Source: an uncultured delta proteobacterium | Lineage (GTDB): Bacteria; Desulfobacterota; Binatia; UBA9968 | Length of the DNA stretch: 64,000 nt | Reading direction: 5' to 3' | Assembly (NCBI GenBank): GCA_963737905.1 | Contig: CAVTUQ010000011.1 | Coordinates: 1-64,000, forward strand | Notes under the pieces: generated by a model | Database searches by the model: none | What the model saw: the letters and a program-made list of their open reading frames with translations, nothing else | What the model was told of the DNA's origin: nothing | Program-made: the position numbers and the translations under genes | Shown here: piece by piece, positions 18,461 to 61,641 of the stretch | How the letters are laid out: every line of letters begins with the position of its first letter | How positions within the stretch are numbered: position 1 is the stretch's first letter

Positions 18461-18476
18461 TGGTATGCTCTTTGCG
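18461..18476 (+). promoter_or_regulatory. sigma54 -24/-12 promoter (csbD operon)
   Basis: TGGTAT-GCTCT-TTGCG, 60 bp before ATG. Confidence 0.75.
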
Positions 18477-18536
18477 TCCTATGCATGACTGTCGAACCCA
18501 ATTTCTTCAAAACATTTCTTAAAAGGAGTATAGCAT

Positions 18537-18899
18537 ATGAATTCTGTTGATTTGGAAGGCAAGTGGCAAAAACTCAGAGGTGAAATACGGTCACAGTGGG
18601 GCAAGCTTACCGATGATGACCTTGAGAGAATTGCCGGAAATAAAGACAAGCTTATCGGCGTCGTGCAAGAAAGATACGGTTACGTTTGGGACGAGGCTCG
18701 CCAAATGGTGGATCGCTACTTGGATGACTATAACGGTCTGAAACATCAGGCAACCGAAGCTTTGAGGAATGTCGCGTCGAAGGAAAACATCCAAAAGGTC
18801 GGAAGCGATGTGGCGGATTTCGTTCGACGTTATCCTATTCCATCTATCCTGATTGGAGTGGGGATCGGATATTTACTCGCCCGGCGAAGCGAAAGATAA
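18537..18899 (+). CDS. CsbD-family protein with ElaB/YqjD-like C-terminal membrane anchor
   Basis: GKWQKLRGEIRSQWGKLTDDDL...VQERYG; tail FVRRYPIPSILIGVGIGYLLAR. Confidence 0.88.
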   Translation: MNSVDLEGKWQKLRGEIRSQWGKLTDDDLERIAGNKDKLIGVVQERYGYVWDEARQMVDRYLDDYNGLKHQATEALRNVASKENIQKVGSDVADFVRRYPIPSILIGVGIGYLLARRSER

Positions 18900-18902
18900 G
18901 CG

Positions 18903-19232
18903 ATGCCGGCGGAGGCCCAAAGAGTCCCGAAACCCACGTTGCTATCGTTGGTTCGCGGTATCGTCGATGACGCCAAGCGGCTCGTTGTCGGGCAGTACGA
19001 GTTCCGCAAGTATCAAACCGTGCGCCAGATCGCCAAAGCTAAGGCCATGGCGATCTGGATCGGCACCGGGATAGCCTTTGCCTGCATCGGCGCGATATTG
19101 ATCACCCTGATGGTGGTGCATTTGCTGAGCGATATTTTCAATCTTCCTCTTTGGGGCAGTTACGGAATCGTCGGAGTTGTTTTAATTGCGGTGGGCGGAG
19201 GATGCCTATACGGCGCAAAGTCTCGACTGTAA
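18903..19232 (+). CDS. YqjE-like / phage holin family two-TM membrane protein
   Basis: SLVRGIVDDAKRLV then two TM helices; position after a YqjD-like gene. Confidence 0.75.
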   Translation: MPAEAQRVPKPTLLSLVRGIVDDAKRLVVGQYEFRKYQTVRQIAKAKAMAIWIGTGIAFACIGAILITLMVVHLLSDIFNLPLWGSYGIVGVVLIAVGGGCLYGAKSRL

Positions 19233-19259
19233 GAATGTTGGACAAGGAATCAACGGTAG

Positions 19260-19658
19260 ATGCTTATGGATCTGGAAGAAGAAAGACTTAAACACCAGCT
19301 AGAAGCTCGCGAAATAGCACTCAAGGAAAAAATCAATGCGCTTAAGGAGCGCATCGAGCACTTCAAGACGATGGTAGACGTGAAATCTCAAGTTCGGCGG
19401 CGCCCTGGTCTAACGTTGACGGGTTCAATTTTGGCAGGGTTTTTAACCAAGAAACTGGTCGCCGGAAAAAACCGCCATTCGCCCTATCCTCATCGCAGCA
19501 ATTCCCGCCCGGTGCCCATGCCGGCAATCGCGACCGGCGGGATCATCTCGGCAATAGCTACGCGGGCGGCCATCGCCATTATCAGTGAATTCGTTGACAA
19601 GCTGTTGCCCAAAAAAAAGGATAGACGGCAGTCTCCACCGAACGTTACCCACAACTGA
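19260..19658 (+). CDS. Hypothetical protein (DUF3618/YqjK-like)
   Basis: Coiled coil, then VRRRPGLTLTGSILAGFL; third gene of the cluster. Confidence 0.65.
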   Translation: MLMDLEEERLKHQLEAREIALKEKINALKERIEHFKTMVDVKSQVRRRPGLTLTGSILAGFLTKKLVAGKNRHSPYPHRSNSRPVPMPAIATGGIISAIATRAAIAIISEFVDKLLPKKKDRRQSPPNVTHN

Positions 19659-21249: not shown

Positions 21250-22368
21250 ATGGATTCTCAACTACGTTTTAGCACAGGAGCGCTGCGGCGCTTGCTCCCT
21301 GTATTGTGTGGCATTTTCATAACGGCCTATTCAGCCCTTAGCGCCGAACTGCCGCTCAAGGATATCAAACTACCACCCGGTTTTGATATCAGTATCTATG
21401 CCGGTAACCTGCCGAATGCCCGGTCTCTCGCCCTCAGTCCCAAAGGTACGTTGTTCGTCGGTACTCTTAGAGAGGGAAAGGTTTACGGAGTTCTAAATGA
21501 CGGTAAGAAAACCGTTACCATTGCGCAGGGATTGAACATGCCCAATGGCGTCGCGTTTCGCAATGGAGCCCTCTACGTCGCCGAAGTCAATCGGGTGCTC
21601 CGGTACGACGATATCGAGTCCCGTCTTGCCAATCCCCCGAAACCAGTCGTAGTCAACGACCAGTTTCCAAAGGATCGCCATCATGGGTGGAAGTTTATAG
21701 CTTTTGGTCCGGACGGGCTGCTCTATGTCCCGGTGGGGGCACCCTGCAATATCTGTGAACCCGACGAAAATCGTTACGCGCTTATCAGCCATCTGAAGGC
21801 AGACGGAACCGGGATTGAGGTATTTGCCCGGGGTATTCGCAATACCGTCGGCTTCGACTGGCATCCGGTGACCAAGGAGCTTTGGTTCACCGACAATGGG
21901 GGTGATAATTTAGGGGACGATGTTCCGCCCGACGAGCTGAACCATGCGCCGAAGCAAGGTCTCAATTTCGGCTATCCCTACTGCCACGGAGGAGACATTC
22001 CTGACCCTCAGTTCGGCAAGAAACATCCCTGCAGTGAATTTACCCCGCCGGCACGAAAGCTCGGCCCTCATGTAGCTGCGCTGGGCATGCGCTTTTACAC
22101 CGGTTCGATGTTTCCGGCCGAGTATCGCAACCAGATTTTTATCGCGGAGCACGGCTCCTGGAACCGGAGCACGCCCATCGGATATCGAATCACCGTTGTC
22201 CAGCTAGAGAACAACCGAGCAGTTTCCTATAAACCCTTCGCCGAAGGTTGGTTGCAGGGAAGGCGGGCATGGGGACGACCCGTTGATGTGCTCGTCATGC
22301 CAAACGGCGCGTTGCTGGTGTCGGATGACGAAGCAGGGGTCATCTACCGTATTCATTACAGAAAATGA
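21250..22368 (+). CDS. Glucose/sorbosone dehydrogenase family (PQQ-type beta-propeller)
   Basis: Signal peptide; IAFGPDGLLYVPVGAPCNIC, GIRNTVGFDW, HGSWNRS and GRPVDV. Confidence 0.9.
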   Translation: MDSQLRFSTGALRRLLPVLCGIFITAYSALSAELPLKDIKLPPGFDISIYAGNLPNARSLALSPKGTLFVGTLREGKVYGVLNDGKKTVTIAQGLNMPNGVAFRNGALYVAEVNRVLRYDDIESRLANPPKPVVVNDQFPKDRHHGWKFIAFGPDGLLYVPVGAPCNICEPDENRYALISHLKADGTGIEVFARGIRNTVGFDWHPVTKELWFTDNGGDNLGDDVPPDELNHAPKQGLNFGYPYCHGGDIPDPQFGKKHPCSEFTPPARKLGPHVAALGMRFYTGSMFPAEYRNQIFIAEHGSWNRSTPIGYRITVVQLENNRAVSYKPFAEGWLQGRRAWGRPVDVLVMPNGALLVSDDEAGVIYRIHYRK

Positions 22369-22564
22369 ACATGCTGCGTCTTGACGCCGGGACTCGCCAT
22401 CTTCGAGGTGAAATATTTCAAATCCCGTTAACCGTAAAACCGCCGGCTAAGATACCTAGCCCGGATTATTCATGCGCCGAGGAAAAGCGACGCACATGTA
22501 GACCGAGACCGAGGAATGAACCTCGGAGCGAGCAGGCACAGGAGCGTGGAGCTACGCTGACTTC

Positions 22565-22600
22565 TAGGGGTTCAGCTACGAATAGGGGTTCAGCTACGAA
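22565..22600 (+). repeat. 18-bp tandem duplication
   Basis: TAGGGGTTCAGCTACGAA x2. Confidence 0.8.
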
Positions 22601-22721
22601 CTCGCGTTTTTTAACTACTCTGTGCTCCGCCACTCCAATTCGCAGGCTTCCTCAAGTCACAGGCCCATTGCCTGCGACCGGAGAGGCTCGGTCCTCGGTC
22701 ATCTTCGGTGAATAAACCGGG

Positions 22722-23417
22722 CTAGACATTGACCGTGGCCAACACCGGAAGATGGTCGGAGGCCGTTCGCGCCAGACCGTTGTCGGCTATTTTCACTTGC
22801 ACCAGTGCCCCCCTCGGTTTTACCCAGATCCGATCCAGAGCAAACACCGGAAAGAAAGACGGGAAGGTCCGCGGCGAAGGCGCCTTACCCAGATGACTGT
22901 TCAAACTATAGAGGGCGAATCCTCTCGGCCGCCATTCATTGATATCGCCGATGACAAGCGTGAGAGCATGATTCGCTTTTTGCTGCCGCAGTATTTTCAT
23001 CAGTGATTGAGCTTGCCGTCTCCTCTCGTTCAGTGCCAGCCCGAAGTGAGTTACCAAGACACGAATTATCTTGCCATCCCAAACGATCTCAGCCTCGATA
23101 ACCCCGCGCGGCTGGCGCCGGACCACAGTCAAATCATGGAGCCTCACGTGGGTGATCTCGCGAGAAGTCAGTAAGGCATTGCCGAATTCGAAATCCGCGC
23201 GTCGGATCGTTGGTCCGGCGACAGCGCTCATTCCCGTAGCGGCGGCCAGATAGTCGAGCTGATGGGATTTTTTCGACCCCAGCGGGTTCAAGTCCACTTC
23301 TTGCAATCCAATAATATCGGCCTTGATCTCCTGGATGACCGTCGCAATACGGTGCGGATCGCGCTTGCCATCTATGCCGACACACTGGTGAATGTTGTAG
23401 GAAACAGCGGTAAGCAA
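22722..23417 (-). CDS. Endonuclease/exonuclease/phosphatase family (YbhP-like)
   Basis: SYNIH, LQEV, GDINEW, LDRIW and ASDHLPV. Confidence 0.9.
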   Translation of the reverse strand: MLTAVSYNIHQCVGIDGKRDPHRIATVIQEIKADIIGLQEVDLNPLGSKKSHQLDYLAAATGMSAVAGPTIRRADFEFGNALLTSREITHVRLHDLTVVRRQPRGVIEAEIVWDGKIIRVLVTHFGLALNERRRQAQSLMKILRQQKANHALTLVIGDINEWRPRGFALYSLNSHLGKAPSPRTFPSFFPVFALDRIWVKPRGALVQVKIADNGLARTASDHLPVLATVNV

Positions 23418-23449: not shown

Positions 23450-25558
23450 TCACGAGGCTGGCATGGCTCTGCCCCCATACCAGCGGTAAAACCCAACCCC
23501 CAGAAATGCAAAGAGGATCGCCAACACTATAAGAAGTATGATGTTTCCCATCCCTGGATCTTCGAGAGCTCGTGCCAGTTGATTCTCCAGAAGAACGATA
23601 GCCGATATGCCCGGGCTCATGCCCACAAGGGTGCCGAGCAAGAAATCGCGGACACGGATCTGAATCGCCCCCGCTACGAGATTCACAATAGCAAAAGGCG
23701 CAATAGGAACAATGCGAACAAATAACAGCGAAATAAAACCATGACGTGACATCTGCCGTTGCACGCGACCCAATCGGGATCCTGCAATTCTGCGCACTGT
23801 TTCCTTACCGACGATACGGCCCACAACGTAGGTAACCAGGGCGCTCACCAAACAGCCGCACAGGGCGTAGAGAAAGCCAAGAACAGGTCCAAACGCTGCT
23901 ACAGTGGCAATAATGAGCAATGTGACCGGCGCGAGAACTAAGCTGCCAATAGTAAAAATCCCGGCAATCCAGACCGGCGCAAGCGGTGAGTCGGTTATGG
24001 ACGTTACCCAGCTGCTGATGGTCGCATAGTCGACAAAGGCGTGCAAAGAAGTGGCACGCCAGATACCAACAAGCGCCGCCAAGCTCAATAAAATCACGGC
24101 CAAACGTAGCAGGCCCGGAACAGCGCGCCGCCGCGTGGCCGTAGGTATAAATTGTTGCATCAACTCATCGGGACTCAACGGACGCTCAGGATCGATGACC
24201 GAAGCCGCAGGAATCATCTCGTCAAGGGTTGGCGACACCGACCCGTCGAGGATACCCAGGGTACGACTACCCCCGCGCAACTCTTGTATGGCGCGTGCCA
24301 AAGACCGTTCTGCCGAATGTTTTTCTGCGACCCTTTCGGGTGACACTCCTAAATGCTCGGCCAGCAGCCGGTTGCGTAGGTTGGCAATGGAATTCTCCGT
24401 GGCCGGCGTCTCCGCCTCGATCGCGAGGTCGCACTCTGTGTCCAGGCCCATAGAGCGATTGTTAAGGTTCGCCGATCCAACGCGAAGCAATCTGTCGTCG
24501 ATAATGCAAACTTTGGCATGTACCCGCATCTGGACGCTCGGGTCCGCTAAAACAGGATAGTAGACATGCAGCCGCCCAAAGCGGTCGGCTGCGCGCAAGC
24601 GCCGCAGCAGGCGCGACCTCAACACCGCCATACTCACCTGTTCCAGCCATTCTGAGGTCTCTTGGGGCAATACCATGATGATTTCCGGGCCGTCCTGTTC
24701 TTGCAGTCGGGATGCTAAAGCGTCTCCAATTGATGAGGAGCTCAGATATTGGTTTTCCAGATATATGTTCCGGCGCGCATAGCGGATGCTGTCGAGGTAT
24801 AGATCTTCCACCTCCCGTATTTCCTGCCGTACATCGTAGGCAGGCTCGGTACGGGAGATTGCCACCGCAACATCCTGAAAAGCCGCTGTTACTCCCGACG
24901 GCCACGGATCTCCAGATCTCCCGGCAGCAACGCGGAGTCGCTGCCCCGTGGCCCGGCGCCAACGCTCCCGGACAAGACGCCCGAGAGTGGCGGCGGCATC
25001 GCCGTCTACCATGAGCTGCACGTCATGGTAAGGAGGATAAAGTCGGCCAAGAGAATCTACCCGGTGAGGATCTTGGGCCAGGTGATCAGGCGTGTCCCAG
25101 CGACGCTCCGCTATATCCAATCCGCCGGCAAACGCGAGGGCGTCATCGACGACGACAATCTTCTGATGATGCGACGCGCCCAAGGGATGGCCGCTGTCGA
25201 GGTGAAAATGAATCCTTCTGTGGGTCCGCCAGGGGTGAGCATAAAGCGGAATGATTTCGCGATCAGCGGCATAGATCATCGCAAAATCCCACAGCAGCAC
25301 ATAAATGCGAAGCTTCCGATTACGGCGCACGAGACCATGTAAAAAGTCTCCGAAGCATGGAGCAGCAGAATTTCGAGGATTCGGCCGGAGCCGGCTATCG
25401 AGCTGCCAGCCGGCAATCAAAATAAACCGCTGTGCGTTCTCAAGGGCCGACGTCAACGCGGAAAAGTAAGCTTCGCCGTCGATTAGGAAAGCCGCGCGGT
25501 TTGCTCGACTGATCGAGCAGCAGTTTTTTCCCTCCACGCAGATACGCGATGAATTCAT
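23450..25558 (-). CDS. Phospholipase D (two HKD) fused to a VTT/DedA membrane domain
   Basis: HHQKIVVVDD, VHAKVCIIDD...GSANLNNRS; C-terminal TM region with RIVPIAPF. Confidence 0.9.
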   Translation of the reverse strand: MNSSRICVEGKNCCSISRANRAAFLIDGEAYFSALTSALENAQRFILIAGWQLDSRLRPNPRNSAAPCFGDFLHGLVRRNRKLRIYVLLWDFAMIYAADREIIPLYAHPWRTHRRIHFHLDSGHPLGASHHQKIVVVDDALAFAGGLDIAERRWDTPDHLAQDPHRVDSLGRLYPPYHDVQLMVDGDAAATLGRLVRERWRRATGQRLRVAAGRSGDPWPSGVTAAFQDVAVAISRTEPAYDVRQEIREVEDLYLDSIRYARRNIYLENQYLSSSSIGDALASRLQEQDGPEIIMVLPQETSEWLEQVSMAVLRSRLLRRLRAADRFGRLHVYYPVLADPSVQMRVHAKVCIIDDRLLRVGSANLNNRSMGLDTECDLAIEAETPATENSIANLRNRLLAEHLGVSPERVAEKHSAERSLARAIQELRGGSRTLGILDGSVSPTLDEMIPAASVIDPERPLSPDELMQQFIPTATRRRAVPGLLRLAVILLSLAALVGIWRATSLHAFVDYATISSWVTSITDSPLAPVWIAGIFTIGSLVLAPVTLLIIATVAAFGPVLGFLYALCGCLVSALVTYVVGRIVGKETVRRIAGSRLGRVQRQMSRHGFISLLFVRIVPIAPFAIVNLVAGAIQIRVRDFLLGTLVGMSPGISAIVLLENQLARALEDPGMGNIILLIVLAILFAFLGVGFYRWYGGRAMPAS

Positions 25559-25632: not shown

Positions 25633-25648
25633 CGCAAATGGAATGCCA
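25633..25648 (-). promoter_or_regulatory. sigma54 -24/-12 promoter (PLD-EEP operon)
   Basis: TGGCAT-TCCAT-TTGCG on the minus strand. Confidence 0.75.
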
Positions 25649-25941: not shown

Positions 25942-25957
25942 TGGTACGGGAGTTGCA
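25942..25957 (+). promoter_or_regulatory. sigma54 -24/-12 promoter
   Basis: TGGTAC-GGGAG-TTGCA. Confidence 0.8.
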
Positions 25958-26025
25958 CAACTCGCATTGCACAAAATGCGCGCGACTCATAATTGACCGC
26001 GCCACCGAAAGAGCGAGGAACCCTT

Positions 26026-26466
26026 ATGCTTGACAAACAACCTTTTCACAATGACGAGATCGCAGAGGATTTCCTCTGCCGGGAGCAAACACGAAATCTG
26101 TTCGGACAACCGGATGTTATCGTCATCCACGAGTACCTCTATGTCTATCGAAGCAGCACCGCTCATACGCCGGAGATAAAACTCATCGCAGCGGTGCTGG
26201 AAGATGCAATCGACTGTTATCTCAAGTATTGTTCAGCGAAAACTCGACGCGGAAAAAGAATCTTCGGGGAAGCGGCGCAATGGATCTTTGACCGGGACGA
26301 AGATTGGCTTTTCGGGTTTGAAAACATTTGTGAGATGTTGAAACTCGACCCCGACTACATCAGGCGCGTCCTTAAGCAGAATGCGCAGGAGCGCTTGCTG
26401 AATCAAGCCTCCGGGCAGCAGCTGCTTCCAGACTTCTCGGCAACAGCGTTGCGTTTAGCGTCTTAG
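26026..26466 (+). CDS. Hypothetical protein with HTH-like C-terminus
   Basis: LIAAVLEDAIDCY...AAQWIF...FGFENICEMLKLDPDYIRRVL; RBS GAGG. Confidence 0.75.
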   Translation: MLDKQPFHNDEIAEDFLCREQTRNLFGQPDVIVIHEYLYVYRSSTAHTPEIKLIAAVLEDAIDCYLKYCSAKTRRGKRIFGEAAQWIFDRDEDWLFGFENICEMLKLDPDYIRRVLKQNAQERLLNQASGQQLLPDFSATALRLAS

Positions 26467-26598: not shown

Positions 26599-27894
26599 TT
26601 GGCTACCGTGGCAAAAAGCCATCGGGTTATCGTGGTTGGCGGAGGCTTTGCCGGCCTTTACGCAACCCAGTGTCTAAAGCATGTATCCGTAGCGGTAACG
26701 CTCATCGACCGGCGCAATTTTCATCTGTTTCAACCGTTGCTCTACCAGGTCGCGACCGGCTGGCTCTCGCCGGCCAACATCGCGGCAACCCTGCGCGCCA
26801 TCCTCAAACACCATAAAAACACCCACGTGCTTTTGGCGGAGGCGGTCGGTATCGACGTGGATAATCGACGGGTCCTGCTGGATAGCGGTTCTCTGACCTA
26901 TGATACTCTGATCGTCGCAACAGGCTCCCGTCATCACTACTTCGGTCATCAGCAGTGGGAACCCTTCGCCCCGAGCCTTAAAACGGTCGAAGATGCCACT
27001 GAAATTCGCCGGCGTATTTTTTCCGCCTTTGAAGCCGCCGAACGAGCAGCCGATACCGAACAACTAAGCGCGTTGTTGACCTTCGTAATCGTCGGCGGAG
27101 GACCAACAGGTGTCGAATTGGCAGGCGCTCTGGGGGAGATCGCCAACGATACTCTCCGGCACGATTTTCGTAATATCGATCCCTCGAAAGCCCGCATAAT
27201 ATTGATCGAGGCAACCGACCGGATTCTGCCCACTTATCCTCCGGAGTTGGCCCATCAGGCGGAAATTTCGCTGAACAAATTGGGAGTTGAAGTGCAAAGC
27301 CAGGCAATGGTTACAGATATAAATCCGAGAGCCGTTACGGTGAAGCGCGCTGACAGGCTCGAAACTATTCCCTGCCGCACGGTGATTTGGGCCGCAGGAG
27401 TTCAAGCTTCGTTTATGGGTAAAGTTCTCGCCCAGGCCACCGGTGCCGAGCTGGATCGCAGCGGAAGGGTTCTCGTTGAGGCGGACCTAACCATTCCGGG
27501 TCACCCGGAAATATTTGTGATCGGGGATCTGGCCCACTATGATCACCCGAACGGCAAGCTCCTCCCCGGTATCGCACCGGTAGCCATTCAAGAAGGCCAA
27601 TATGTGGCGAGAGTTATACGCAGCAGAGTTACCGGAGCCCCTTCACCTTCTTTTCGTTACCATGATCGCGGCAACATGGCCATTGTCGGCAGAGCCTCCG
27701 CAGTTGCCGATCTAGGTAAATTGCAGTTCTCTGGCTTCCTCGCTTGGCTGGCCTGGCTTTTTGTCCATCTCATGCATCTGGTGGAGTTCGAAAATAAGGT
27801 TCTCGTTTTAATTCAGTGGGGTTGGTATTACTTTCGTCGCAACCGTGCGGCGCGATTGATTACCAGCAGCGATTCCGCCAAGCGGACCGATTAG
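26599..27894 (+). CDS. ndh: Type II NADH dehydrogenase (NDH-2) family
   Basis: VGGGFAG, HLFQPLLYQVATG, VGGGPTGVELAG, WAAGV and IGDLA. Confidence 0.9.
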   Translation: MATVAKSHRVIVVGGGFAGLYATQCLKHVSVAVTLIDRRNFHLFQPLLYQVATGWLSPANIAATLRAILKHHKNTHVLLAEAVGIDVDNRRVLLDSGSLTYDTLIVATGSRHHYFGHQQWEPFAPSLKTVEDATEIRRRIFSAFEAAERAADTEQLSALLTFVIVGGGPTGVELAGALGEIANDTLRHDFRNIDPSKARIILIEATDRILPTYPPELAHQAEISLNKLGVEVQSQAMVTDINPRAVTVKRADRLETIPCRTVIWAAGVQASFMGKVLAQATGAELDRSGRVLVEADLTIPGHPEIFVIGDLAHYDHPNGKLLPGIAPVAIQEGQYVARVIRSRVTGAPSPSFRYHDRGNMAIVGRASAVADLGKLQFSGFLAWLAWLFVHLMHLVEFENKVLVLIQWGWYYFRRNRAARLITSSDSAKRTD

Positions 27895-32112: not shown

Positions 32113-32357
32113 TGCTAGTCCTCCGATTAAGGTTGCTTAAGGAGCTACAGCCTTACAAGAAGCGCCTCAACCTGGCTTTTCGACTAAAATGGATAGCCTA
32201 CGGCGCCCTTCCAGCTCGTCGATGAAAATGCGGTCCGGCCCCAGTTCTTTTATTAGCTCAGATTCCAGCATGTGGGGAGATTACTGTATGCTGTCATTTA
32301 TTTGGATGTTGTCAATATAGATAGTATGGGGGCCAGGTCGTTTTGCATGATTATTGA

Positions 32358-33894: not shown

Positions 33895-33910
33895 TGCAAG
33901 GAACATACCA
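33895..33910 (-). promoter_or_regulatory. sigma54 -24/-12 promoter
   Basis: TGGTAT-GTTCC-TTGCA on the minus strand. Confidence 0.8.
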
Positions 33911-36809: not shown

Positions 36810-36825
36810 TGGCACGGCTCTTGCC
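36810..36825 (+). promoter_or_regulatory. sigma54 -24/-12 promoter (ppk1 operon)
   Basis: TGGCAC-GGCTC-TTGCC. Confidence 0.75.
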
Positions 36826-40793: not shown

Positions 40794-40809
40794 GGGCATA
40801 GGGTTTGCT
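40794..40809 (+). promoter_or_regulatory. sigma54 -24/-12 promoter
   Basis: GGGCAT-AGGGT-TTGCT. Confidence 0.65.
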
Positions 40810-44191: not shown

Positions 44192-44207
44192 CGCAAGTGG
44201 TGTGCCA
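44192..44207 (-). promoter_or_regulatory. sigma54 -24/-12 promoter (dodecin operon)
   Basis: TGGCAC-ACCAC-TTGCG on the minus strand. Confidence 0.78.
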
Positions 44208-44743: not shown

Positions 44744-44759
44744 TGCAAGAGTTGTTCCT
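44744..44759 (-). promoter_or_regulatory. sigma54 -24/-12 promoter
   Basis: AGGAAC-AACTC-TTGCA on the minus strand. Confidence 0.65.
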
Positions 44760-50550: not shown

Positions 50551-51003
50551 CTACTTCCGGGCGCCTGGAGGAAGACTTTGATCGTCGCCCGGCTGTTTCT
50601 GAGTCGGCTCTACGCTCTTTCCCGACGTCCCACTGGTCGACGGTTTTGAGCTGATCTTCACGCCCAGTTGCTCTGCGGTTTCTTGATCGACCATACCGGT
50701 CACCGTCAATCCTTTATCCTTCTGAAAAGCTCGAATCGCCGTGCGAAATTCATTGTCCGCAGCGCCGTCGATCTTGCCTACCTTATACCCCTTCGCTTGC
50801 AAAGCTTTCTCGACTACCCTTATATCATTTTTTGATAATTCGGGGGTTCCGGGCTCCGCACCGCGCGGGATATTCTGATCGGTCCCGGGTCGGGTCTGAT
50901 GAGTTGGTTTGTCGCTAGTAGCTTTTTGCGCCCATGCGGGACTCGATACGAAACCGACTGCCCCGCTGAGGATCATCGCTGTTATCACCGATTGTTTTTT
51001 CAT
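50551..51003 (-). CDS. Secreted peptidoglycan-binding domain protein
   Basis: Signal peptide; ALQAKGY..GKIDG...TAIRAFQKDKGLTVTG..DQET. Confidence 0.88.
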   Translation of the reverse strand: MKKQSVITAMILSGAVGFVSSPAWAQKATSDKPTHQTRPGTDQNIPRGAEPGTPELSKNDIRVVEKALQAKGYKVGKIDGAADNEFRTAIRAFQKDKGLTVTGMVDQETAEQLGVKISSKPSTSGTSGKSVEPTQKQPGDDQSLPPGARK

Positions 51004-51058: not shown

Positions 51059-51074
51059 CGCAAGAGCTATGCCA
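51059..51074 (-). promoter_or_regulatory. sigma54 -24/-12 promoter
   Basis: TGGCAT-AGCTC-TTGCG on the minus strand. Confidence 0.8.
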
Positions 51075-51231: not shown

Positions 51232-51483
51232 TTACTTATGCTGCTTTTTTTGTAGGATCGCCTTTGCCTTCTCCAATTCCCTCTTTCGAGTCATAGATAG
51301 ACTTTTGCCAGCTCGGTTAATGAAATATTGGATCATCCGGATGCCCGAACCGATGCCCTTAGGACTCACCCTCCCCTTCGCCATAGTCTTGGCGATCGTT
51401 TGCGCGTCTTTCGTGAATAAATCTTTGGGTGGATTAGTGGAAACCGTCTTTACCTTGCGGACCCATTTTTTCGGTTTAACCAT
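51232..51483 (-). CDS. DUF3175-family protein
   Basis: KKWVRKVKTVST.PPKDLFT...MIQYFINRAGKSL...ELEKAK. Confidence 0.8.
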   Translation of the reverse strand: MVKPKKWVRKVKTVSTNPPKDLFTKDAQTIAKTMAKGRVSPKGIGSGIRMIQYFINRAGKSLSMTRKRELEKAKAILQKKQHK

Positions 51484-51545
51484 CGCGCTATCTGTGGGGT
51501 TGCATCTTTGGTTTGGGTCGTTAGGTCCAGCCTGAAAGGTCACCT

Positions 51546-51794
51546 TCAAATTCGCTCATGCGAAGGTTTATGCCTGCCGATCCATTCCTGACCCTTGTCG
51601 ACAACCTTTTCGGCGCCGTCGCGAAGTTTGTCCGCCTGTTGGTTCAGATAATCCATTCCTTCATTGGTGCGGCGGCGAATATCCTCTCGGATCTCTTCGC
51701 CGGAGCGCGGAGCCAGCAATAAACCGGCCGCCAGGCCAATGCCTATGCCGATCAAAAGATAGGGAACTCCGCTCCCTTCATCGTTCCTAAACAT
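51546..51794 (-). CDS. YtxH-domain protein
   Basis: GIGIGLAAGLLLAPRSGEEIREDI. Confidence 0.88.
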   Translation of the reverse strand: MFRNDEGSGVPYLLIGIGIGLAAGLLLAPRSGEEIREDIRRRTNEGMDYLNQQADKLRDGAEKVVDKGQEWIGRHKPSHERI

Positions 51795-51826
51795 CTTTGT
51801 TCCTTTCCATCTATTTTGCTTAGACG

Positions 51827-52141
51827 CTATGATTGTTTCTGCACTTGAAGATTATTCTTGACACTTTTCACTCCGCCGACTTGACGGGCGAGTTGTTCGG
51901 CCTTGGCCTTCTGATCCGCGGATTCAACGATCCCATTGAGCGTAACGACCTGGTTGGTGGTATCGACGTCAATGCGCGTCAGGTTCGCGGTCTTTTCTCC
52001 CACCAGTTTGGCCTTTACCGAAGCGGTAATAGTCGAATCATCCATGTACTGACCTGCGGTCTCGCCCGTCATGGAGGTGCACCCGCTCACCACCAACAGG
52101 GCCGCTAATACCATCGACGATATCCTTAATCGTTTTATCAT
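51827..52141 (-). CDS. BON-domain lipoprotein (OsmY-like)
   Basis: Lipobox VSGC; DDSTITASVKAKL...VTLNGIV...GVKSVKNNL. Confidence 0.92.
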   Translation of the reverse strand: MIKRLRISSMVLAALLVVSGCTSMTGETAGQYMDDSTITASVKAKLVGEKTANLTRIDVDTTNQVVTLNGIVESADQKAKAEQLARQVGGVKSVKNNLQVQKQS

Positions 52142-52197
52142 TTTTCATTCCTCCTTTTCTTGGACTTACCTTCTTGTTAATAGAGCGAAATGACTCG

Positions 52198-52350
52198 TCA
52201 TACGCGACCCATAACGAGCAGTAGGATCAATACGACTAAAATAAGCCCCAGACCACCGCTCGGGTAATAACCCCAGCCCGAGCTATAGGGCCAGGTCGGC
52301 AATGCTCCGACCAGAAGCAAAACGAGGATGATCAACAAGATTGTTCCCAT
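52198..52350 (-). CDS. DUF3309-family small membrane protein
   Basis: ILVLLLVGALPTWPYSSGWGYYPSGGLG; RBS AAGGAGG. Confidence 0.9.
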   Translation of the reverse strand: MGTILLIILVLLLVGALPTWPYSSGWGYYPSGGLGLILVVLILLLVMGRV

Positions 52351-52488
52351 AAGACCTCCTTTCCATATCTCGATAAAAAACCCCATGATTTTTATTTTGG
52401 ACTCGCGATAACGTGAGCACACACTCGGGCCTTCTCCACGAACTCTCCTCCGTCCGCATCCTCCCCCCGGGCGGGAGAAGTCCGATGA

Positions 52489-52725
52489 TTAAATGGCTCT
52501 TGTTTTCCGGGCGGCTTCCGCATCCGTCTCCTGGCGTTCGAACCATTGGTCCGCCCAGCGGCTTACCTCTTGTTTTTTGTCGCCGTAACGGGCTTGCAAA
52601 GTTCCCTGGAACTTTTGATAGTCGCCTTCGATCTGCAGCAAATCGTCATCGGTAAATTGTCCCCATTGCTTTTTTAGCTCGCCTTTAAATTGAGTCCACC
52701 TACCCTTAAATTGATCTTTGTTCAT
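52489..52725 (-). CDS. CsbD-family protein
   Basis: MNKDQFKGRWTQFKGELKKQWGQFTDDDL...LQARYG. Confidence 0.92.
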   Translation of the reverse strand: MNKDQFKGRWTQFKGELKKQWGQFTDDDLLQIEGDYQKFQGTLQARYGDKKQEVSRWADQWFERQETDAEAARKTRAI

Positions 52726-52791
52726 AACGGCTCCTTTCTGGTTTTGTCTTCGTGTTTTTGTTTTTTTCTACGTCTTGTGATCTCGAGATTA

Positions 52792-52807
52792 CCCAAAGCA
52801 TGTGCCA
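52792..52807 (-). promoter_or_regulatory. sigma54-like promoter (imperfect -12)
   Basis: TGGCAC-ATGCT-TTGGG on the minus strand, 66 bp before csbD. Confidence 0.5.
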
Positions 52808-53501
52808 ACCGAGCGAAGGAGGGGATCGCTGTTGTTTTGTAAAGATTTATTTCGTGCTGGATCGTGAGCGATCCATCTTTGTCCGAGCTTCGCGCACAAG
52901 GTGGAAGAAAAAAACAGACGCTAGCGTTGGATGCTCTAAACACAACTATCGCGATGCGAGCGATGTCTATTGAGTAAGTGGATTGTCAGAAACCGGACGG
53001 AAGTTTTTCTGTGTGCTCCAGAAAGATGTTGAATCAAAAAACGGTTCGTTGAGAGGCAGCGCCTTGTGCATGATTTTTGCTGTTGTCACAGATTGCCTCC
53101 TTTTTGAATTCCTGTGCGATGAGGCGATGGTGGTTTTTGTCGCCGAAAATTCAGCTGTAGATTAGAACTTTAGGGCCGCTTCTCTCTTTTTACGGGCCGC
53201 GAAGAAATAAAAGGCCGGTATTTGGCGACCTTAGAGAATAGGTTCATCAGCGGCTTAGGTTTTAAGACAAACCCATGGTATGAGAGTGGTCCGGATTATT
53301 GTGCGCATTTTAGATACAAAATAAGTATGATATCTAGGACAGCCACGCGCTATTGGTGGAGCATTACGGTAGTGGCTAAAAATTGGGAATATTGAAAGAG
53401 GAGACCGATTTCGTTAGAGCGTATTGAAGTAGGCTCATTAGAGGTGAATAGATAGTCTATCCGACGAGCGGCTAACCCATGGCCGCAAGAGAGAAAAGCC
53501 A

Positions 53502-54959
53502 ATGAGTAAAGAAAACGGACAGCCCCTGAGAGCGGGAAAACTGTTAGTGGTCGATGACGACAGCAATCTCGTAGAGCTTGTTTCTATGAAGCTTCAGGCG
53601 GCGAACTATGAGGTGGCCACCGCCCTTAAGGAGGAAGAGGCCCTCAAAGCCGCCACCAGCGATGTCTTTGACCTTTGTATTGTCGATCTTAAGCTTTCCG
53701 GGCGAAACGGGATCTCTCTAATGACGGAACTGCACTCGGTCAACCCCGAGATGCCGGTCATTATACTGACCGGTCATGCCAGCGTGGAAAGCGCTGTGGA
53801 GGCGATGAAGAAGGGGGCCTACAGCTACCTGACCAAACCCTTTAACACCCCCGAACTATTGTTACAGATCGAGCGGGCGTTGGAGAACCGCCGGCTGAAC
53901 TCTGAGATCCAAAGACTGAAGGAGCTTTTGGAGGAGCGATACGATTTTACGAACATCATTGCGAGAAGTGAAGGGATGCGAAAGGTCCTCGACGTGGTCT
54001 CGCGCATCGCCTGTACCGAATCGACGGTATTTCTGCAGGGGGAGAGCGGCACGGGCAAGGAAATCGTGGCCAAGGCCATCCATCTCGCGAGTTCACGGAA
54101 AAATAAACCCTTTGTGGCCATCAATTGTGCGGCCCTGCCCGCAACCTTGCTCGAAAGCGAGCTTTTCGGTCATGAAAAAGGGTCGTTCACGGGCGCCAAC
54201 CGAAGCACGAAGGGCCTGCTCAGCCAGGCCGATGGAGGCACGATCTTCTTAGATGAAATCGGCGATATGCCGGCTTCCCTTCAGGCTAAACTCTTGCGCG
54301 TGTTGCAGGAGCGTGAATTTTATCCCGTGGGCAGCGAGAAGCCGGTTCAAGTCGATGTCCGCATCATCACCGCCACCAATAAGGATCTGCAGGCTGAGGT
54401 CAAAGAAGGCCATTTCCGCGAGGATTTGTTTTACCGGCTTCACGTGATTCCGATTCATCTGCCGCCGCTTCGCGAGCGAAAGGAAGATATCCCGCATTTG
54501 GCCAACCATTTTCTAAAAATCATTTCCCAGCAGATGAAAAAAGAGGTCAAGGGTATTACCCCCCAAGCGATGCAGAAGCTCATGCTTCACGATTGGCCGG
54601 GCAACGTCCGGGAACTGGAAAATTGCTTGGAATATGCCGTGGCGATGACCCCCCTGGATACGATTACCGAAGAGTTTGTCCTCCAGACCCGGCCCTCTAC
54701 CCCGGCGCTATCCCCGCAACAAGAAACCGGCCCCCAGATGCACATCGCGCTCAACGGGCCGGTCAAATCTTACAGGGATGCCCGCTATCTATTTGAAAGG
54801 GATTATCTGGTTAGGCTCCTGGAGCTTTGCGGCGGCAAAGCCAGCGAGGCGGCAAAACTCGCCGGCAAGTGCCGCACCGACTTCTATGAGCTACTTCGAA
54901 AACACGAGATCAAGATCGAAAATTTCAAGGCCGCCCCCAACGTAGCCCATACGGAGTGA
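53502..54959 (+). CDS. sigma54-dependent response regulator (REC-AAA+-HTH; GlrR/NtrC-like)
   Basis: GESGTGKE, ESELFGHEKGSFTGA, FLDEIGD and WPGNVRELEN; HTH AAKLAGKCRTDFYELL. Confidence 0.93.
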   Translation: MSKENGQPLRAGKLLVVDDDSNLVELVSMKLQAANYEVATALKEEEALKAATSDVFDLCIVDLKLSGRNGISLMTELHSVNPEMPVIILTGHASVESAVEAMKKGAYSYLTKPFNTPELLLQIERALENRRLNSEIQRLKELLEERYDFTNIIARSEGMRKVLDVVSRIACTESTVFLQGESGTGKEIVAKAIHLASSRKNKPFVAINCAALPATLLESELFGHEKGSFTGANRSTKGLLSQADGGTIFLDEIGDMPASLQAKLLRVLQEREFYPVGSEKPVQVDVRIITATNKDLQAEVKEGHFREDLFYRLHVIPIHLPPLRERKEDIPHLANHFLKIISQQMKKEVKGITPQAMQKLMLHDWPGNVRELENCLEYAVAMTPLDTITEEFVLQTRPSTPALSPQQETGPQMHIALNGPVKSYRDARYLFERDYLVRLLELCGGKASEAAKLAGKCRTDFYELLRKHEIKIENFKAAPNVAHTE

Positions 54960-54987
54960 CGCTCAGGGAGAAACCTCCGGAGTCTCC

Positions 54988-56832: not shown

Positions 56833-56833
56833 C

Positions 56834-58098: not shown

Positions 58099-58114
58099 TG
58101 GTACGTTTTCTGCT
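58099..58114 (+). promoter_or_regulatory. sigma54 -24/-12 promoter
   Basis: TGGTAC-GTTTT-CTGCT. Confidence 0.65.
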
Positions 58115-58262: not shown

Positions 58263-59972
58263 ATGCTACCCAGAGAAATGCGACCTGGCTCTATCGCGTA
58301 CTTTTCCATGGAGGTTGGTCTCGACCCTTCAATGCCCACCTATAGCGGCGGCCTCGGTATCCTTGCCGGAGATACCTTGCGTGCCGCCGCCGATCTCGGT
58401 CTCCCCATGATCGGCGTAACCCTTTTGCACCGCCAAGGTTACTTCCGCCAACACTTGGATTTGACAGGCAACCAGCTTGAGAGCCCCGCAGTTTGGAATT
58501 TTGAAGAGGTTCTGGAACCTATGGCGCCGCGTATCCTGGTGCCCATTGAGGGGCAACAGGTTCACCTTTGCGCGTGGCGTCACTTGGTCCGTGGCGTGTT
58601 CGGCCACACCGTTCCGGTTTACTTCCTCGATACCGGTCTCGAAGACAACAGTCCCGGAGAACAGAGCCTGACGGATTCGCTCTACGGTGGAAACTCTTAC
58701 CACCGCCTGTGTCAGGAAGTCGTGCTGGGAATGGGCGGCATGGCGATGCTGGACGCCCTCGGCTTCAAGAACATCAATACCTATCACATGAACGAGGGAC
58801 ATGCCGCATTGCTGACCCTGGCGCTTTTAGAACAGCAAACAAACGGAGGGGGGCTGCCGGCGGCAAGCGATTGGGACAGAGAGGCGGTTCGACAACGCTG
58901 CGTCTTTACTACCCACACTCCGGTGCCGGCAGGGCATGACCAATTTTCTATTGATCTTATCAGCCGTGTTCTGGGGCCAGAACGATTGGCCGCCTTGGAG
59001 ACAATGCAGTGTATGTCGAACGGCTCCCTAAACATGACCTATCTGGCACTGCAGCTGTCTCGTTACGTTAATGGCGTGGCCATGCGCCACGGGGAAATTT
59101 CCCGCAATATGTTTCCCCACTATCCCATTGACTCCATCACCAACGGTGTCCACGCTTTGACCTGGACCTCCCTCCCCTTTCGCAACCTTTTTGATCGTTA
59201 CATTCCGGAGTGGCGGCGCGACAATTTCTATTTACGTTATGCCACAAAAATTCCGCTGGCAGATGTGCGCCGCGCTCACACCCTCGCCAAACGCGAATTA
59301 TTGGCCAGGGTCGCCCAGCGCACGGGAACCCATCTCGCCGAGAATGTCATAACGCTCTGCTTTGCCCGCCGAGCCGCAACCTATAAACGCGCCGATTTAT
59401 TGTTCGAAGATCTCGAGCGCCTCAAAAGCATCGCCCAGCGGGCCGGCCCGTTTCAGGTGATCTACGGCGGGAAGGCCCATCCTCAGGATGACGAGGGGAA
59501 AGCCGTGATCCGGCGGATTTTCGAGTTTGCGGCCAGCCTGGGGGACAATGTCCGGATTGTCTATATAGAGAACTACGACATGGAGTTGGCTCGGTCGCTC
59601 TGCGCAGGAGTGGATCTCTGGTTGAACACTCCACAGAGGCCCATGGAGGCTTCTGGCACGAGCGGCATGAAGGCAGCCCTCAATGGCGTTCCGAGCTTGA
59701 GCATCCTGGACGGCTGGTGGATCGAAGGTCATGTGGAAGGGGTCACAGGCTGGGCCATCGGCGACCGCTACGACAGCGGGATTGACCTTGCCGAAGAGGC
59801 AAATTCTCTCTACGACAAACTGGAGCATGTCATTCTGCCCTTGTTTTACGGCCAGCCCGAGGCCTATACGGAGATCAGGCGCTCAACCATCGCGTTGAAC
59901 GGCTCATTCTTTCACACGCAACGCATGGTGTTGCAGTATTTGCGGAATGCCTATTTGGGCGTTGAACCCTAA
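58263..59972 (+). CDS. glgP: Alpha-glucan phosphorylase (short form)
   Basis: YFSMEVG, YSGGLGILAGD, HMNEGH, FTTHTPVPAGHD and EASGTSGMKAALNG. Confidence 0.93.
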   Translation: MLPREMRPGSIAYFSMEVGLDPSMPTYSGGLGILAGDTLRAAADLGLPMIGVTLLHRQGYFRQHLDLTGNQLESPAVWNFEEVLEPMAPRILVPIEGQQVHLCAWRHLVRGVFGHTVPVYFLDTGLEDNSPGEQSLTDSLYGGNSYHRLCQEVVLGMGGMAMLDALGFKNINTYHMNEGHAALLTLALLEQQTNGGGLPAASDWDREAVRQRCVFTTHTPVPAGHDQFSIDLISRVLGPERLAALETMQCMSNGSLNMTYLALQLSRYVNGVAMRHGEISRNMFPHYPIDSITNGVHALTWTSLPFRNLFDRYIPEWRRDNFYLRYATKIPLADVRRAHTLAKRELLARVAQRTGTHLAENVITLCFARRAATYKRADLLFEDLERLKSIAQRAGPFQVIYGGKAHPQDDEGKAVIRRIFEFAASLGDNVRIVYIENYDMELARSLCAGVDLWLNTPQRPMEASGTSGMKAALNGVPSLSILDGWWIEGHVEGVTGWAIGDRYDSGIDLAEEANSLYDKLEHVILPLFYGQPEAYTEIRRSTIALNGSFFHTQRMVLQYLRNAYLGVEP

Positions 59973-60030
59973 CAGATTGGAATACTGGAATGATGGATGT
60001 AAAACCCAAAATTCCAACACCCCATTTCCC

Positions 60031-61359
60031 CTAAAACCCACCGCCCAGGTCGGTCAGGACGTGCTCGAATTTTTTTCTGAATGCTTCTGTCGATAGCGGT
60101 TTTTCACCACTGGAAACAGCGCGCGCCAATTTTTCGAGACGTTCAAGATTTTCGAAATCCTCCCGTTCCAATCGAATCATATACTCGCGGGCCACTTTGT
60201 AGGCGGGCTTGGAGATGTCGACGGGCCGCACGGACGTCTTTTTTGTTCTCGAGTCCATGAGGTCTTCGAACTTGAGATAACGCAGCTGGCCGTCAACGAT
60301 GCAGACGAGGGCTCCATCGATTCTTGATGTCGATTCGTCAGGGTTTAAAAGAAATTCCACCGCGCCATAGCCGAGGGTCTTCACGTACTCGCAATCAAAA
60401 GCTACCGGTGGAGCGCAACGAAGTTCATAACCGATGGTTTTGTGAACGATGGTAAGATTCTGGCCACGCTCCGCGAAACGCCGTTCAACCAGATTCTTCA
60501 AAATGTAAGCCAGATCAAGCTCGGCAAGGCGGAGATGGCCGTAGCTGTCGTGCAGAATTTGCACGCCCTCGATGCTTGTCAGCTCTTCCACAGGCATGCG
60601 TTCAAGCAACCCCTCGGCGATGACCGCGACCCCATCATGTCGTTGCCATAACGCTTGCCGCTTTAAGATGGCGCCCTCCAAGAGATCTCCTACCGTTTTA
60701 AGGTGAACAGAACCGGGGAATTCCTCAGGTATCACGGAAAGTGTAGCGCCGGCGGCTTTGCCGACGCCGAGCGCTAGATGCCCTGCGGTTCGTCCCATGA
60801 CCACAACAAAATACCAGCGATGCGTGGTGCGGGAATCCTCCATCAAGTTATGTACAATTTCAAAGCCGTGCTGGCGCGCTGTTTCAAAGCCGAATGTCGG
60901 CATTTCTCCCGGCAGCGGCAGATCATTATCAATGGTCTTGGGGACATGACACACTCGAATCCTTCCGGCCGAGCACTTGGCCACCTGGCTCGCCGCGTAC
61001 ATCGTATCGTCGCCACCGATCGTTACCAGGTATCCGACCTGTAGCATTTTTAGGACGGCAACAACCTGTTCCATGTCCTTGGTTTTTTTGGTCGGGTTCG
61101 CGCGGGATGTGTTGAGAATCGAGCCGCCGGCGAAGTGAATCCGGGAAACGTCGTCGTGATCAAGAAGTTTGGTCCGGTCGATTCTTCCTTCCATCAGGTG
61201 AGAAAATCCGTCGTAAATCCCGACGACCTGATGGCCGCGATTACCGGCCTCAAGGGTGACAGCACCGATGGCACCATTGATCCCCGGAGCCGGCCCTCCG
61301 CCAACGATGATGCCGACTCGATCTCTGCCGTCCGAAGGACGCGATGAATTAGCCGTCAT
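60031..61359 (-). CDS. pfp: Pyrophosphate-dependent phosphofructokinase
   Basis: GGGPAPGIN, IGGDDT (PPi-type Asp), PKTIDND, MGR and GYELR. Confidence 0.88.
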   Translation of the reverse strand: MTANSSRPSDGRDRVGIIVGGGPAPGINGAIGAVTLEAGNRGHQVVGIYDGFSHLMEGRIDRTKLLDHDDVSRIHFAGGSILNTSRANPTKKTKDMEQVVAVLKMLQVGYLVTIGGDDTMYAASQVAKCSAGRIRVCHVPKTIDNDLPLPGEMPTFGFETARQHGFEIVHNLMEDSRTTHRWYFVVVMGRTAGHLALGVGKAAGATLSVIPEEFPGSVHLKTVGDLLEGAILKRQALWQRHDGVAVIAEGLLERMPVEELTSIEGVQILHDSYGHLRLAELDLAYILKNLVERRFAERGQNLTIVHKTIGYELRCAPPVAFDCEYVKTLGYGAVEFLLNPDESTSRIDGALVCIVDGQLRYLKFEDLMDSRTKKTSVRPVDISKPAYKVAREYMIRLEREDFENLERLEKLARAVSSGEKPLSTEAFRKKFEHVLTDLGGGF

Positions 61360-61417
61360 GACTGCTATCGTCTCCGATTAATCTCACCGATCGTTTCGTT
61401 ATTAATGTTTGTTCGAG

Positions 61418-61433
61418 CGCAATTGACGTGCCA
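61418..61433 (-). promoter_or_regulatory. sigma54 -24/-12 promoter
   Basis: TGGCAC-GTCAA-TTGCG on the minus strand. Confidence 0.8.
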
Positions 61434-61625
61434 TACCCGGTTAACAAAAAGCCGCGGCCGCTAGCGCCGCCTCGGCCTATGACATCCGATCAAATAGTAA
61501 CGAAAAAGTGATTGAATGTTGAAACTTGCTCTAAAAATATGCAGCGGGTGACTGAATTCTCATCACGCGGAATGAGCTCTCCGGTCATTCTCTCCGAGAA
61601 TACCTCTACCACGTGCGTCGCGTCG

Positions 61626-61641
61626 CGGAATAGAAGTTGCT
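61626..61641 (+). promoter_or_regulatory. sigma54 -24/-12 promoter
   Basis: CGGAAT-AGAAG-TTGCT. Confidence 0.6.

Follow-up and report, generated by a model that had tools for sequence, protein, structure and literature searches.

Predicted sigma-54 promoters before a block of stress, storage and envelope genes in an uncultured Binatia bacterium

In the first 64 kb of contig C11 of an uncultured Binatia bacterium (contig CAVTUQ010000011.1 of assembly GCA_963737905.1; the assembly is called G000 here, and this whole 64-kb stretch the window), genes for stress proteins, storage compounds and the cell envelope form a chromosomal block. As far as its sequence can tell, the units of this block quite probably start from genuine sigma-54 promoters and would make up a programme gated by activators. 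An earlier, sequence-only reading of the window had picked out 14 sites of the sigma-54 (-24/-12) type; judged by motif, position and strand, ten of them are strong predicted sigma-54 promoters. That reading had also proposed that a general stress response is wired to sigma-54 (RpoN) here. As a theme, general stress finds partial support; the idea of one regulon, or of sigma-54 taking the place of other stress sigma factors, is unsupported.

RNA polymerase carrying sigma-54 binds a GG at -24 and a GC at -12 and stays in a closed complex. Opening the promoter takes ATP hydrolysis by a hexameric AAA+ activator, which usually binds some 100 bp upstream. Because sigma-54 promoters need an activator, each unit of the block would be off unless an activator is on.

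Sigma-54 motifs in the window and across the genome

The assembly comprises 6.7 Mb in 46 contigs (completeness 87.5%, contamination 6.7%). Genes were called with a simple codon-usage caller (6958 genes, 84.6% coding), and site-to-start distances are therefore approximate. A position weight matrix (PWM) for sigma-54 was built and refined on intergenic sites of G000 itself (consensus TGGCAT-N5-TTGC). Sites scoring at least 9 are called strong, and a hit in promoter position is one that is intergenic, lies on the strand of the next gene and is no more than 300 bp from its start. The predicted promoters and weaker candidates in the window are listed below with strand, gene and PWM score; G001 and G002 are the two other species of the genus.

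18461..18475, +: promoter of the csbD1 operon; 10.1 (12.2 in G001, 11.2 in G002)
18537-18899, 18903-19232 and 19260-19658: genes of the csbD1 operon, namely CsbD, Holin-X-like (Pfam) and an open reading frame (ORF) of 132 amino acids
21196..21210, +: promoter of a glucose/sorbosone dehydrogenase gene (to 22368); 11.1 (12.1 in G001)
25634..25648, -: promoter of a PLD-VTT gene (23450-25537) and an EEP nuclease/phosphatase gene (22722-23417); 13.1
25942..25956, +: promoter of a gene for a 146-amino-acid protein with no Pfam family (26026-26466); 9.4
33896..33910, -: promoter of a CBS-pair gene (33398-33838); 10.4
36810..36824, +: promoter of ppk1; 12.4, a perfect match to the consensus of the sequence-only reading, TGGCAC-N5-TTGC
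40794..40808, +: promoter of a receiver-only response regulator gene (40924-41295); 10.6
44193..44207, -: promoter of the dodecin operon; 12.7, perfect consensus
44745..44759, -: weak candidate AGGAAC-N5-TTGC before a DUF6496 gene (44494-44682); below 5
51060..51074, -: promoter of a peptidoglycan-binding (PG_binding_1) gene (50551-51003); 13.5 (12.3 in G002)
52793..52807, -: imperfect element TGGCAC-N5-TTGG before csbD2-DUF3309-BON-YtxH-DUF3175 (51232-52725); 6.0
58099..58113, +: variant promoter with CTGC at -12 before the glucan phosphorylase gene glgP (569 amino acids, 58263-59972); 8.6
61419..61433, -: promoter of pfp (PPi-type phosphofructokinase, 60031-61359); 14.1, perfect consensus
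61626..61640, +: weak candidate CGGAAT-N5-TTGC before gap (61718-62731); 4.3

All 14 motifs of the sequence-only reading were recovered on the strands it gave, at identical positions on the forward strand and one base away on the reverse strand. Its gene names were borne out by Pfam, including DUF3175 at 51232-51549 (-), and so was its remark that 13 sites keep GG-N10-GC while the one at 52793 has an imperfect -12 element, which reads TTTGG and lacks the C. It had seen no motif before the catabolic genes in the first 18 kb; there is indeed no site scoring 9 or more there, and the only hit scoring at least 5 (9969) is in coding DNA. Its claim of 14 sigma-54 promoters stands for the ten strong sites (scores 9.4-14.1), is made plausible for glgP at 58099 by the enrichment of its variant class and for csbD2 at 52793 by conservation in the genus, and does not extend to 44745 and 61626.

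Loose motif counts within the window were tried as a test and dropped, as they lie at chance level: TGGCAC-N5-TTGC with up to two mismatches has 60 matches against 59.3 expected from shuffled sequence, and GG-N10-GC alone 709 against 729. Since these counts are uninformative, the signal has to come from match quality, position and orientation, which requires the whole genome, gene positions and strand. Genome-wide, TGGYAY-N5-TTGC has 194 matches: 135 in promoter position, 7 in intergenic DNA with the wrong orientation, and 33 in coding DNA. Spacer controls gave 37 matches for N4 (31 coding) and 36 for N6 (28 coding); in promoter position there were 135 matches with N5, 1 with N4 and 4 with N6, so that the motif depends strictly on its spacing. 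Only 9 of the 135 lie within the window, leaving 126 that are out of sample. The PWM gave a similar picture, with 175 strong sites in promoter position against 10 wrongly oriented nearby (113 further sites are in coding DNA, which makes up 85% of the genome), and sites lie a median of 68 bp from the start codon. The genome-wide scan and wrong-strand count that the sequence-only reading had proposed as a check thus came out in favour of promoters.

The same comparison separates the variant classes from one another. GGTAY-N5-TTGC occurs 28 times co-oriented and once wrongly oriented, and the glgP-type variant TGGYAY-N5-CTGC 14 times against 0 (once with an N4 spacer). The csbD2-type variant TGGCAY-N5-TTGG is found 5 times against 0, with two of the five being the duplicated copy described below. 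For GGAAY-N5-TTGC, the form at 44745 and 61626, the counts are 12 against 4, with spacer controls of 9/8 and 7/8.

The window also holds the densest cluster of such sites in the genome, with 10 strong sites per 45 kb where 1.17 are expected (Poisson P = 4.7e-7; 7e-5 after multiplying by the number of 45-kb intervals). Beyond the window's end the series goes on: ppc has a site at 65.6 kb and another peptidoglycan-binding gene one at 73.9 kb. The island spans 18-62 kb of the window and continues to about 74 kb on the contig; counted among its genes are those for a PLD/DedA-type lipid enzyme, a second pfp, ppc and peptidoglycan-binding proteins. C29 and C12 each have a further dense cluster (9 sites per 45 kb), and C9 has one with 7. 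The one on C29 (G000:C29:5476-37307) is a second sigma-54 cluster with genes of the general-stress type, namely for DUF4142, HSP20, a large catalase, a cell-wall hydrolase and CsbD (site score 14.6).

The machinery to read these sites is encoded in the genome. There is one rpoN (C37:108791-109267; a 490-amino-acid ORF with Sigma54_AID, Sigma54_CBD and Sigma54_DBD), so that the gene whose absence the sequence-only reading had named as fatal to its proposal is present and intact; rpoN was found in 40 of the 41 genomes of the family. G000 also encodes 31 full sigma-54 AAA+ domains, that is, activators.

Several of the units have features of their own. The site at 21196 falls inside the longest dehydrogenase ORF, yet a signal-peptide-like N-terminus begins at Met 21250, which places the site upstream of the likely start. 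The ppk1 unit consists of ppk1 (36966-39096, with a frameshift near 37415; the G001 ortholog is open over 724 amino acids) and a DAGK/YegS-like kinase gene (39074-39991). The dodecin operon joins dodecin (43868-44077), a pyruvyl transferase (42735-43850) and an FAD oxidoreductase (41287-42714), and an NDH-2 gene (26608-27894) comes after the gene for the 146-amino-acid protein. Two further PG_binding_1 genes elsewhere in G000 have sigma-54 sites. The receiver gene at 40924-41295 is one of five receiver-only response regulator genes in G000 with a sigma-54 promoter of their own (the others are L038, L040, L047 and L088), and it has a paralog on C38 (78% nucleotide identity) with its own sigma-54 site, followed by a BON gene.

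Conservation of the sites among relatives

Within the genus, sites were kept before csbD1 (2/2), the dehydrogenase gene (1/1), the PLD gene (2/2), the gene for the 146-amino-acid protein (2/2), the CBS gene (2/2), the orthologs of ppk1 (1/1; score 12.8 in G001) and pfp (1/1; 10.3 before the 86%-identical ortholog in G002), the peptidoglycan-binding gene (1/1) and the receiver gene (2/3, counting G001 loci). The letters at -24 and -12 are unchanged and those of the spacer vary. This was also true of the csbD2 element, which stands before csbD2 in G001 and G002 with a changed spacer and TTTGG or TTTGT at -12, and which is present in the C19 duplicate as well. For glgP, the closest ortholog (75% identity, in G031) keeps the CTGC site with a score of 10.7. 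The two weak candidates also recur: GGAAT-N5-TTGC of 61626 is kept in G002 with a changed spacer (score 3.3), and the letters of 44745 are kept in G001, but the flanks there are also 79% identical.

We then compared 40 further genomes of the family, counting same-strand sites of at least 9 within 400 bp upstream of homologs; these counts include loci of G000 itself, paralogs and loci of two unpublished genomes (G006 and G012). CBS genes had a site at 16 of 25 loci (opposite strand 2/25) and CsbD genes, with csbD1 as query, at 8 of 29 (opposite strand 0). The remaining sets gave 8/24 for PLD, 5/28 for glgP, 4/30 for the multi-copy family of the 146-amino-acid protein, 3/21 for csbD2 as query, 2/9 for ppk1 and 2/24 for pfp. 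Opposite-strand sites of at least 9 totalled 8 across eight family gene sets. L393, counted as positive for PLD, and L271, with an opposite-strand dodecin site, both come from G012. Conservation upstream of orthologs, the second check proposed for the motifs, is thus seen at both genus and family level.

For pfp, homologs of about 70% identity, including the copy on C30 of G000, mostly lack a same-strand site, and most family genomes match this C30-type pfp. The divergent pfp-gap pair of the window (60031-62731) is a second copy, with 70-72% identical paralogs in tandem at G000:C30:9856-12161. The family of the 146-amino-acid protein has 10 matches in G000 and matches in all 41 family genomes.

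The island itself is rearranged in G001 and G002, where its genes are scattered across many contigs. Farther away, several island gene families are again found close together: G031 has PLD and glgP on the same contig; G035 has the activator, CBS and csbD on one contig and csbD and PLD on a second; and G034, G042 and G048 have similar pairs.

The activator, the stress reading and its rivals

The window contains a single activator gene:

53502..54959, +: NtrC-family enhancer-binding protein (EBP), with Pfam REC, Sigma54_activat and AAA_lid

Its Response_reg match covers residues 15-123, Sigma54_activat 152-319 and AAA_lid 324-391. The loop reads GSFTGA, a variant that part of a published account also lists for one EBP of Desulfovibrio vulgaris (PMC4641369). 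At the C-terminus, a helix-turn-helix-like tail matches HTH_8 weakly (E 0.033; 14.4 bits against a cut-off of 22), and alignments to the NCBIfam models GlrR and NtrC span almost the whole protein (GlrR to residue 476 of 485) while scoring below the cut-offs. No histidine kinase gene lies beside it, its neighbours being csbD2 and a ring-hydroxylating dioxygenase gene. Among named organisms, the activator's best match is in an uncultured Nitrospira MAG (48% identity); when ORFs flanking 80 named loci were compared with G000, a Binatia locus ranked in the top three, at a median of 54%.

Positions 52145-54969, which comprise DUF3309, csbD2 and the activator with the DNA between the two genes, have a second copy at G000:C19:167143-169973 (97.5% nucleotide identity). 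This is a recent segmental duplication, and the C19 copy encodes an identical activator protein (C19:168506-169963). Its neighbours there are SOD, an M48 peptidase, a sigma-54-driven receiver gene, a PAS histidine kinase and glgX-malQ, with an AtoS-like kinase about 4 kb from the activator. All three species of the genus keep the divergent arrangement of csbD2 and activator, together with the imperfect element. Outside the genus, the closest homologs of the activator (77% identity in G035, 80% in G014) stand divergent beside a CBS gene with a TGGCAY-N5-TTTGT element; among the divergent ORFs beside more distant homologs (62-70% identity), 0 of 22 had a Pfam family, with CBS only in G035. The proposal that the 53502 activator drives the whole gene set is therefore favoured by adjacency for csbD2 (3/3 species) and for CBS (two other genera), and not for the other promoters.

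These observations suggest how the block may work. It would be an activator-gated programme for starvation, dormancy or osmotic/desiccation stress, in which glycogen would be mobilised, polyphosphate made, membrane and wall remodelled, and small protective proteins produced. Several activators rather than one probably feed it, because no common enhancer was found. The likeliest target of the 53502 activator, whose receiver would be phosphorylated by a histidine kinase encoded elsewhere, is the divergent csbD2 operon; the CBS gene is a possible second target.

The theme rests on genes both inside and outside the window. By Pfam, the hallmark genes in the window are CsbD (2), BON, YtxH, DUF3309, dodecin, CBS, ppk1 and glgP. 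For the rest of the genome, the first genes of 165 other sigma-54 units and 77 following genes were annotated by Pfam. The stress group among them comprises two HSP20 genes, a large KatE-type catalase, DUF4142, a tandem Usp protein, OsmC, four Gly-zipper proteins, BON proteins, a second CBS protein, a GAF-phosphorylase and another csbD.

A number of results weaken the general-stress reading, and some of them also weigh against the block as an activator-gated programme. The sigma-54 set of G000 is broad (about 175 promoters and about 31 activators), and stress genes are one part of it. It includes nitrogen genes (three P-II-amtB pairs, another amtB, two glutamine synthetases and a glutaminase), several ABC substrate-binding proteins, type IV pilus parts, polysaccharide export, envelope functions (MlaC, OmpA, DegP, FtsH, an M48 peptidase and a lytic transglycosylase) and regulators (activators, kinases and the five receiver-only proteins), and Pfam assigns no family to almost half of the first genes. 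The stress label itself rests on family names. Moreover, the hallmark families are covered in part:

CsbD: 7 copies, 2 with a strong site, 2 with a weak csbD2-type site only
HSP20: 7 copies, 2 with a strong site, 0 with a weak csbD2-type site only
BON: 9 copies, 2 with a strong site, 1 with a weak csbD2-type site only
YtxH: 1 copy, 0 with a strong site, 1 with a weak csbD2-type site only

Only 6 of these 24 copies have a strong site in their unit, and 4 more have a weak one. Compared with about 2.5% of all called genes this is a roughly tenfold enrichment, yet it is far from full coverage, and a general-stress regulon would be expected to hold most hallmark copies, which is not the case in G000. 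The claim that a stress gene set is wired to RpoN is thus upheld insofar as the theme recurs in the genome and the family, and weakened by the 6/24 copies and the mixed set.

The search for a shared enhancer points the same way. Three 9-mers, each common to three window promoters at about -100, were statistically unusual in a 7- to 9-mer enrichment, and none of the three occurs in the orthologous promoters of G001, G002 or G031. Gibbs sampling on 11 window promoters reached information contents of 8.9, 10.1 and 11.4 (widths 12, 16 and 20), all within the spread seen for 8 randomly drawn sets of other sigma-54 promoters. The sampler is crude and this null is weak negative evidence, though the method has some power, since the same search on nitrogen-type promoters gave 10.74 against at most 10.21 in all 8 controls. 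On 15 CBS promoters of the family it came out barely above shuffles. At the level of single sites, the GGAAY candidates at 44745 and 61626 are not separable from chance and are counted as unsupported although their letters are kept in a relative, and the dodecin site is poorly conserved (genus 0/2, family 2/25 loci). The gene calls are home-made, and the PWM was trained on the genome that it scans. Transcript data fit on the same side of the balance: one soil metatranscriptome contained related sequence (6% of sampled words), with contigs 90-99% alike that cover parts of the csbD1 operon, PLD, the gene for the 146-amino-acid protein (the deepest contig of the region, covering 26025-26275), NDH-2 and polX, but such contigs reveal no transcript start or strand and may stem from carried-over DNA. 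DNA runs X1-X12 contained 28-47% of the sampled words.

Other sigma factors have to be considered as well. No protein in the G000 assembly reaches the cut-off of the NCBIfam RpoS or SigB models. A 529-amino-acid RpoD-like sigma (G000:C2:621408-622997; regions 1.2, 2, 3 and 4) falls below all NCBIfam cut-offs. Reading it as RpoD, with no second factor of the sigma-70 type, was considered and rejected, as a family-wide search shows an RpoD-like paralog: relatives have a primary RpoD of about 630 amino acids and one to several RpoD-like proteins of about 510-560. G000 shows the 529-amino-acid protein as its one RpoD-like protein and is without the primary RpoD of its relatives, and when a primary RpoD is absent from an assembly that is 87.5% complete, the absence of any sigma there means little. 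Further candidate stress sigmas in the lineage, again to the detriment of the stress reading, are an RpoH-type factor and 8-9 sigmas of ECF size. With the extra RpoD-like paralog, RpoH and the ECF sigmas at hand, a replacement of RpoS or sigmaB by sigma-54, which the sequence-only reading had offered as an alternative architecture of the general stress response, is unsupported.

How, then, should the block be explained? The sequence-only reading amounts to one master switch, in which the 53502 activator and its identical copy, together with sigma-54, replace RpoS, sigmaB or EcfG. This would account for a window with one activator gene, for its position beside csbD2 in all three genus species and beside CBS in G035 and G014, for its duplication into a second neighbourhood of stress and glycogen genes, and for the want of any protein above the RpoS or SigB cut-off in the assembly. 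However, the window promoters share no enhancer, some 31 activators face some 175 promoters (about 6 each on average), most CsbD, HSP20 and BON copies are without a site, and the family has extra RpoD-like sigmas and RpoH, the assembly being without even a primary RpoD; we consider such a switch improbable. A more elaborate form, in which sigma-54 and one duplicated NtrC-type regulator command a general-stress/dormancy programme with the imperfect -12 elements as its autoregulatory core, seems to us just as doubtful. The promoters might instead be real but unrelated: the genes would be spread over separate sigma-54 regulons that answer to different signals, would be neighbours simply because sigma-54 units cluster in G000, and would share no programme of stress or dormancy. 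The dense clusters on C29, C12 and C9, the functionally mixed sigma-54 set, the failure to find a shared enhancer and the scattering of the island over many contigs in G001 and G002 would all fit. Such an assortment would hardly predict the coherent theme here and in the C29 cluster (HSP20, catalase, DUF4142 and csbD), or that island families lie near each other again in G031, G035, G034, G042 and G048, and we regard it as unlikely.

Finally, the sites could be chance matches of a short, degenerate motif in AT-rich intergenic DNA, with no promoter function. The loose counts in the window (60 against 59.3 and 709 against 729) look just like this, and two of the 14 sites are indeed inseparable from chance. 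For 10-12 of the sites, however, chance is already contradicted by the specificity of the spacer, the strand bias (135 against 7) and intergenic concentration of the matches, the retention of -24 and -12 letters while spacers change, and the recurrence of sites across genera; as an account of the whole it is very improbable.

Relation to known systems and further observations

In the textbook picture of a general stress response, one sigma factor of the sigma-70 family replaces another. The RpoS regulon of E. coli, the sigmaB regulon of Bacillus and the EcfG regulon of Alphaproteobacteria each depend on one sigma factor of that family, whose level or availability is regulated, and their gene content includes CsbD/YjbJ, OsmY-type BON proteins, YtxH, KatE, small heat-shock proteins, Usp, OsmC and glycogen enzymes. 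The block described here overlaps with these regulons in content and differs from them in its -24/-12 promoters, in the ATP-driven activators that these would need, in its apparently several inputs and in taking in part of the hallmark copies only. E. coli also has stress units under sigma-54, namely psp with PspF, zraP with ZraR, rtcBA with RtcR, and ibpB. The sites before HSP20 genes in G000 recall ibpB, and stress genes gated by sigma-54 are common to both; in E. coli these are isolated operons, each with its own activator, whereas here 10-12 units lie in one block.

The Rrp2-RpoN-RpoS cascade of Borrelia burgdorferi likewise puts an NtrC-type response regulator and sigma-54 at the head of an adaptive, stress-related programme. 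There, sigma-54 acts through rpoS on the effectors, whereas here predicted sigma-54 promoters stand directly before effector genes, and no RpoS was identified. The closest parallel in breadth is Desulfovibrio vulgaris Hildenborough, for which parts of one paper describe a large sigma-54 regulome with many EBPs of response-regulator and single-component types, one regulon labelled general stress response, and 5 of the remaining 24 sigma-54 operons as stress-related (PMC4641369). Judged from those parts, D. vulgaris resembles G000 in its many activators and in dozens of sigma-54 operons for nitrogen, envelope, transport, regulation and stress, and is unlike it in that here a whole block of RpoS/sigmaB-type genes carries predicted sigma-54 promoters. 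The main text of that paper (PMC4641369) makes no mention of CsbD, glycogen, universal stress or Hsp20, and that of a 2025 cross-phylum survey of sigma-54 regulons (PMC12316311) none of general stress, CsbD, glycogen or Hsp20. Literature searches on sigma-54 regulons, CsbD, general stress and Binatota turned up no description of sigma-54 promoters before genes of the CsbD, BON or YtxH type.

The mechanism would thus be the classical scheme of sigma-54 and its activators, and the difference lies in content and density, which recur for CBS, CsbD, PLD and phosphorylase genes across the family. What the block adds is heavy use of a known switch for genes that are under other control in model bacteria, so that its value is in pattern and breadth more than in a new principle. 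If the block is an activator-gated programme, survival genes would be gated tightly, in an all-or-none and signal-specific manner rather than through competition among sigma factors, because sigma-54 promoters are silent without an ATP-driven activator. Such gating is plausible for slow-growing, mostly dormant soil bacteria. The analysis also yields a testable promoter set, a candidate activator and a strong genome-wide catalogue of sigma-54 sites for an uncultured group.

Between the island promoters lies a further group of regulator genes (Pfam):

28724-31222, -: hybrid PAS histidine kinase
31219-32112, -: MEDS-domain protein
32358-33053, -: Crp-family regulator

No sigma-54 site was found before these genes (28724-33053), and position is the only thing that suggests a link to the island promoters.

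Some features of the window reflect its assembly or its repeats. The ppc gene (62792-65518 on C11) appears to be split near 63030, with the C-terminus of PEPcase on a 75-amino-acid ORF, and pieces of an E1 dehydrogenase at 46961-49854 overlap and are fused to a dihydrolipoamide-dehydrogenase-like part; together with ppk1, these split genes are either assembly indels or pseudogenes. Positions 1-2409, 6282-9137 and 46702-46962 recur at 95-99% identity on C16 and C20, where one copy is located at the end of its contig; this fits strain-level redundancy in a bin with 6.7% contamination. The ORF at 22365-22715, which has no Pfam family, contains a dispersed repeat of about 220-270 bp (22457-22725), with at least 11 copies at 69-77% identity on other G000 contigs and dozens of matches in G001 and G002.

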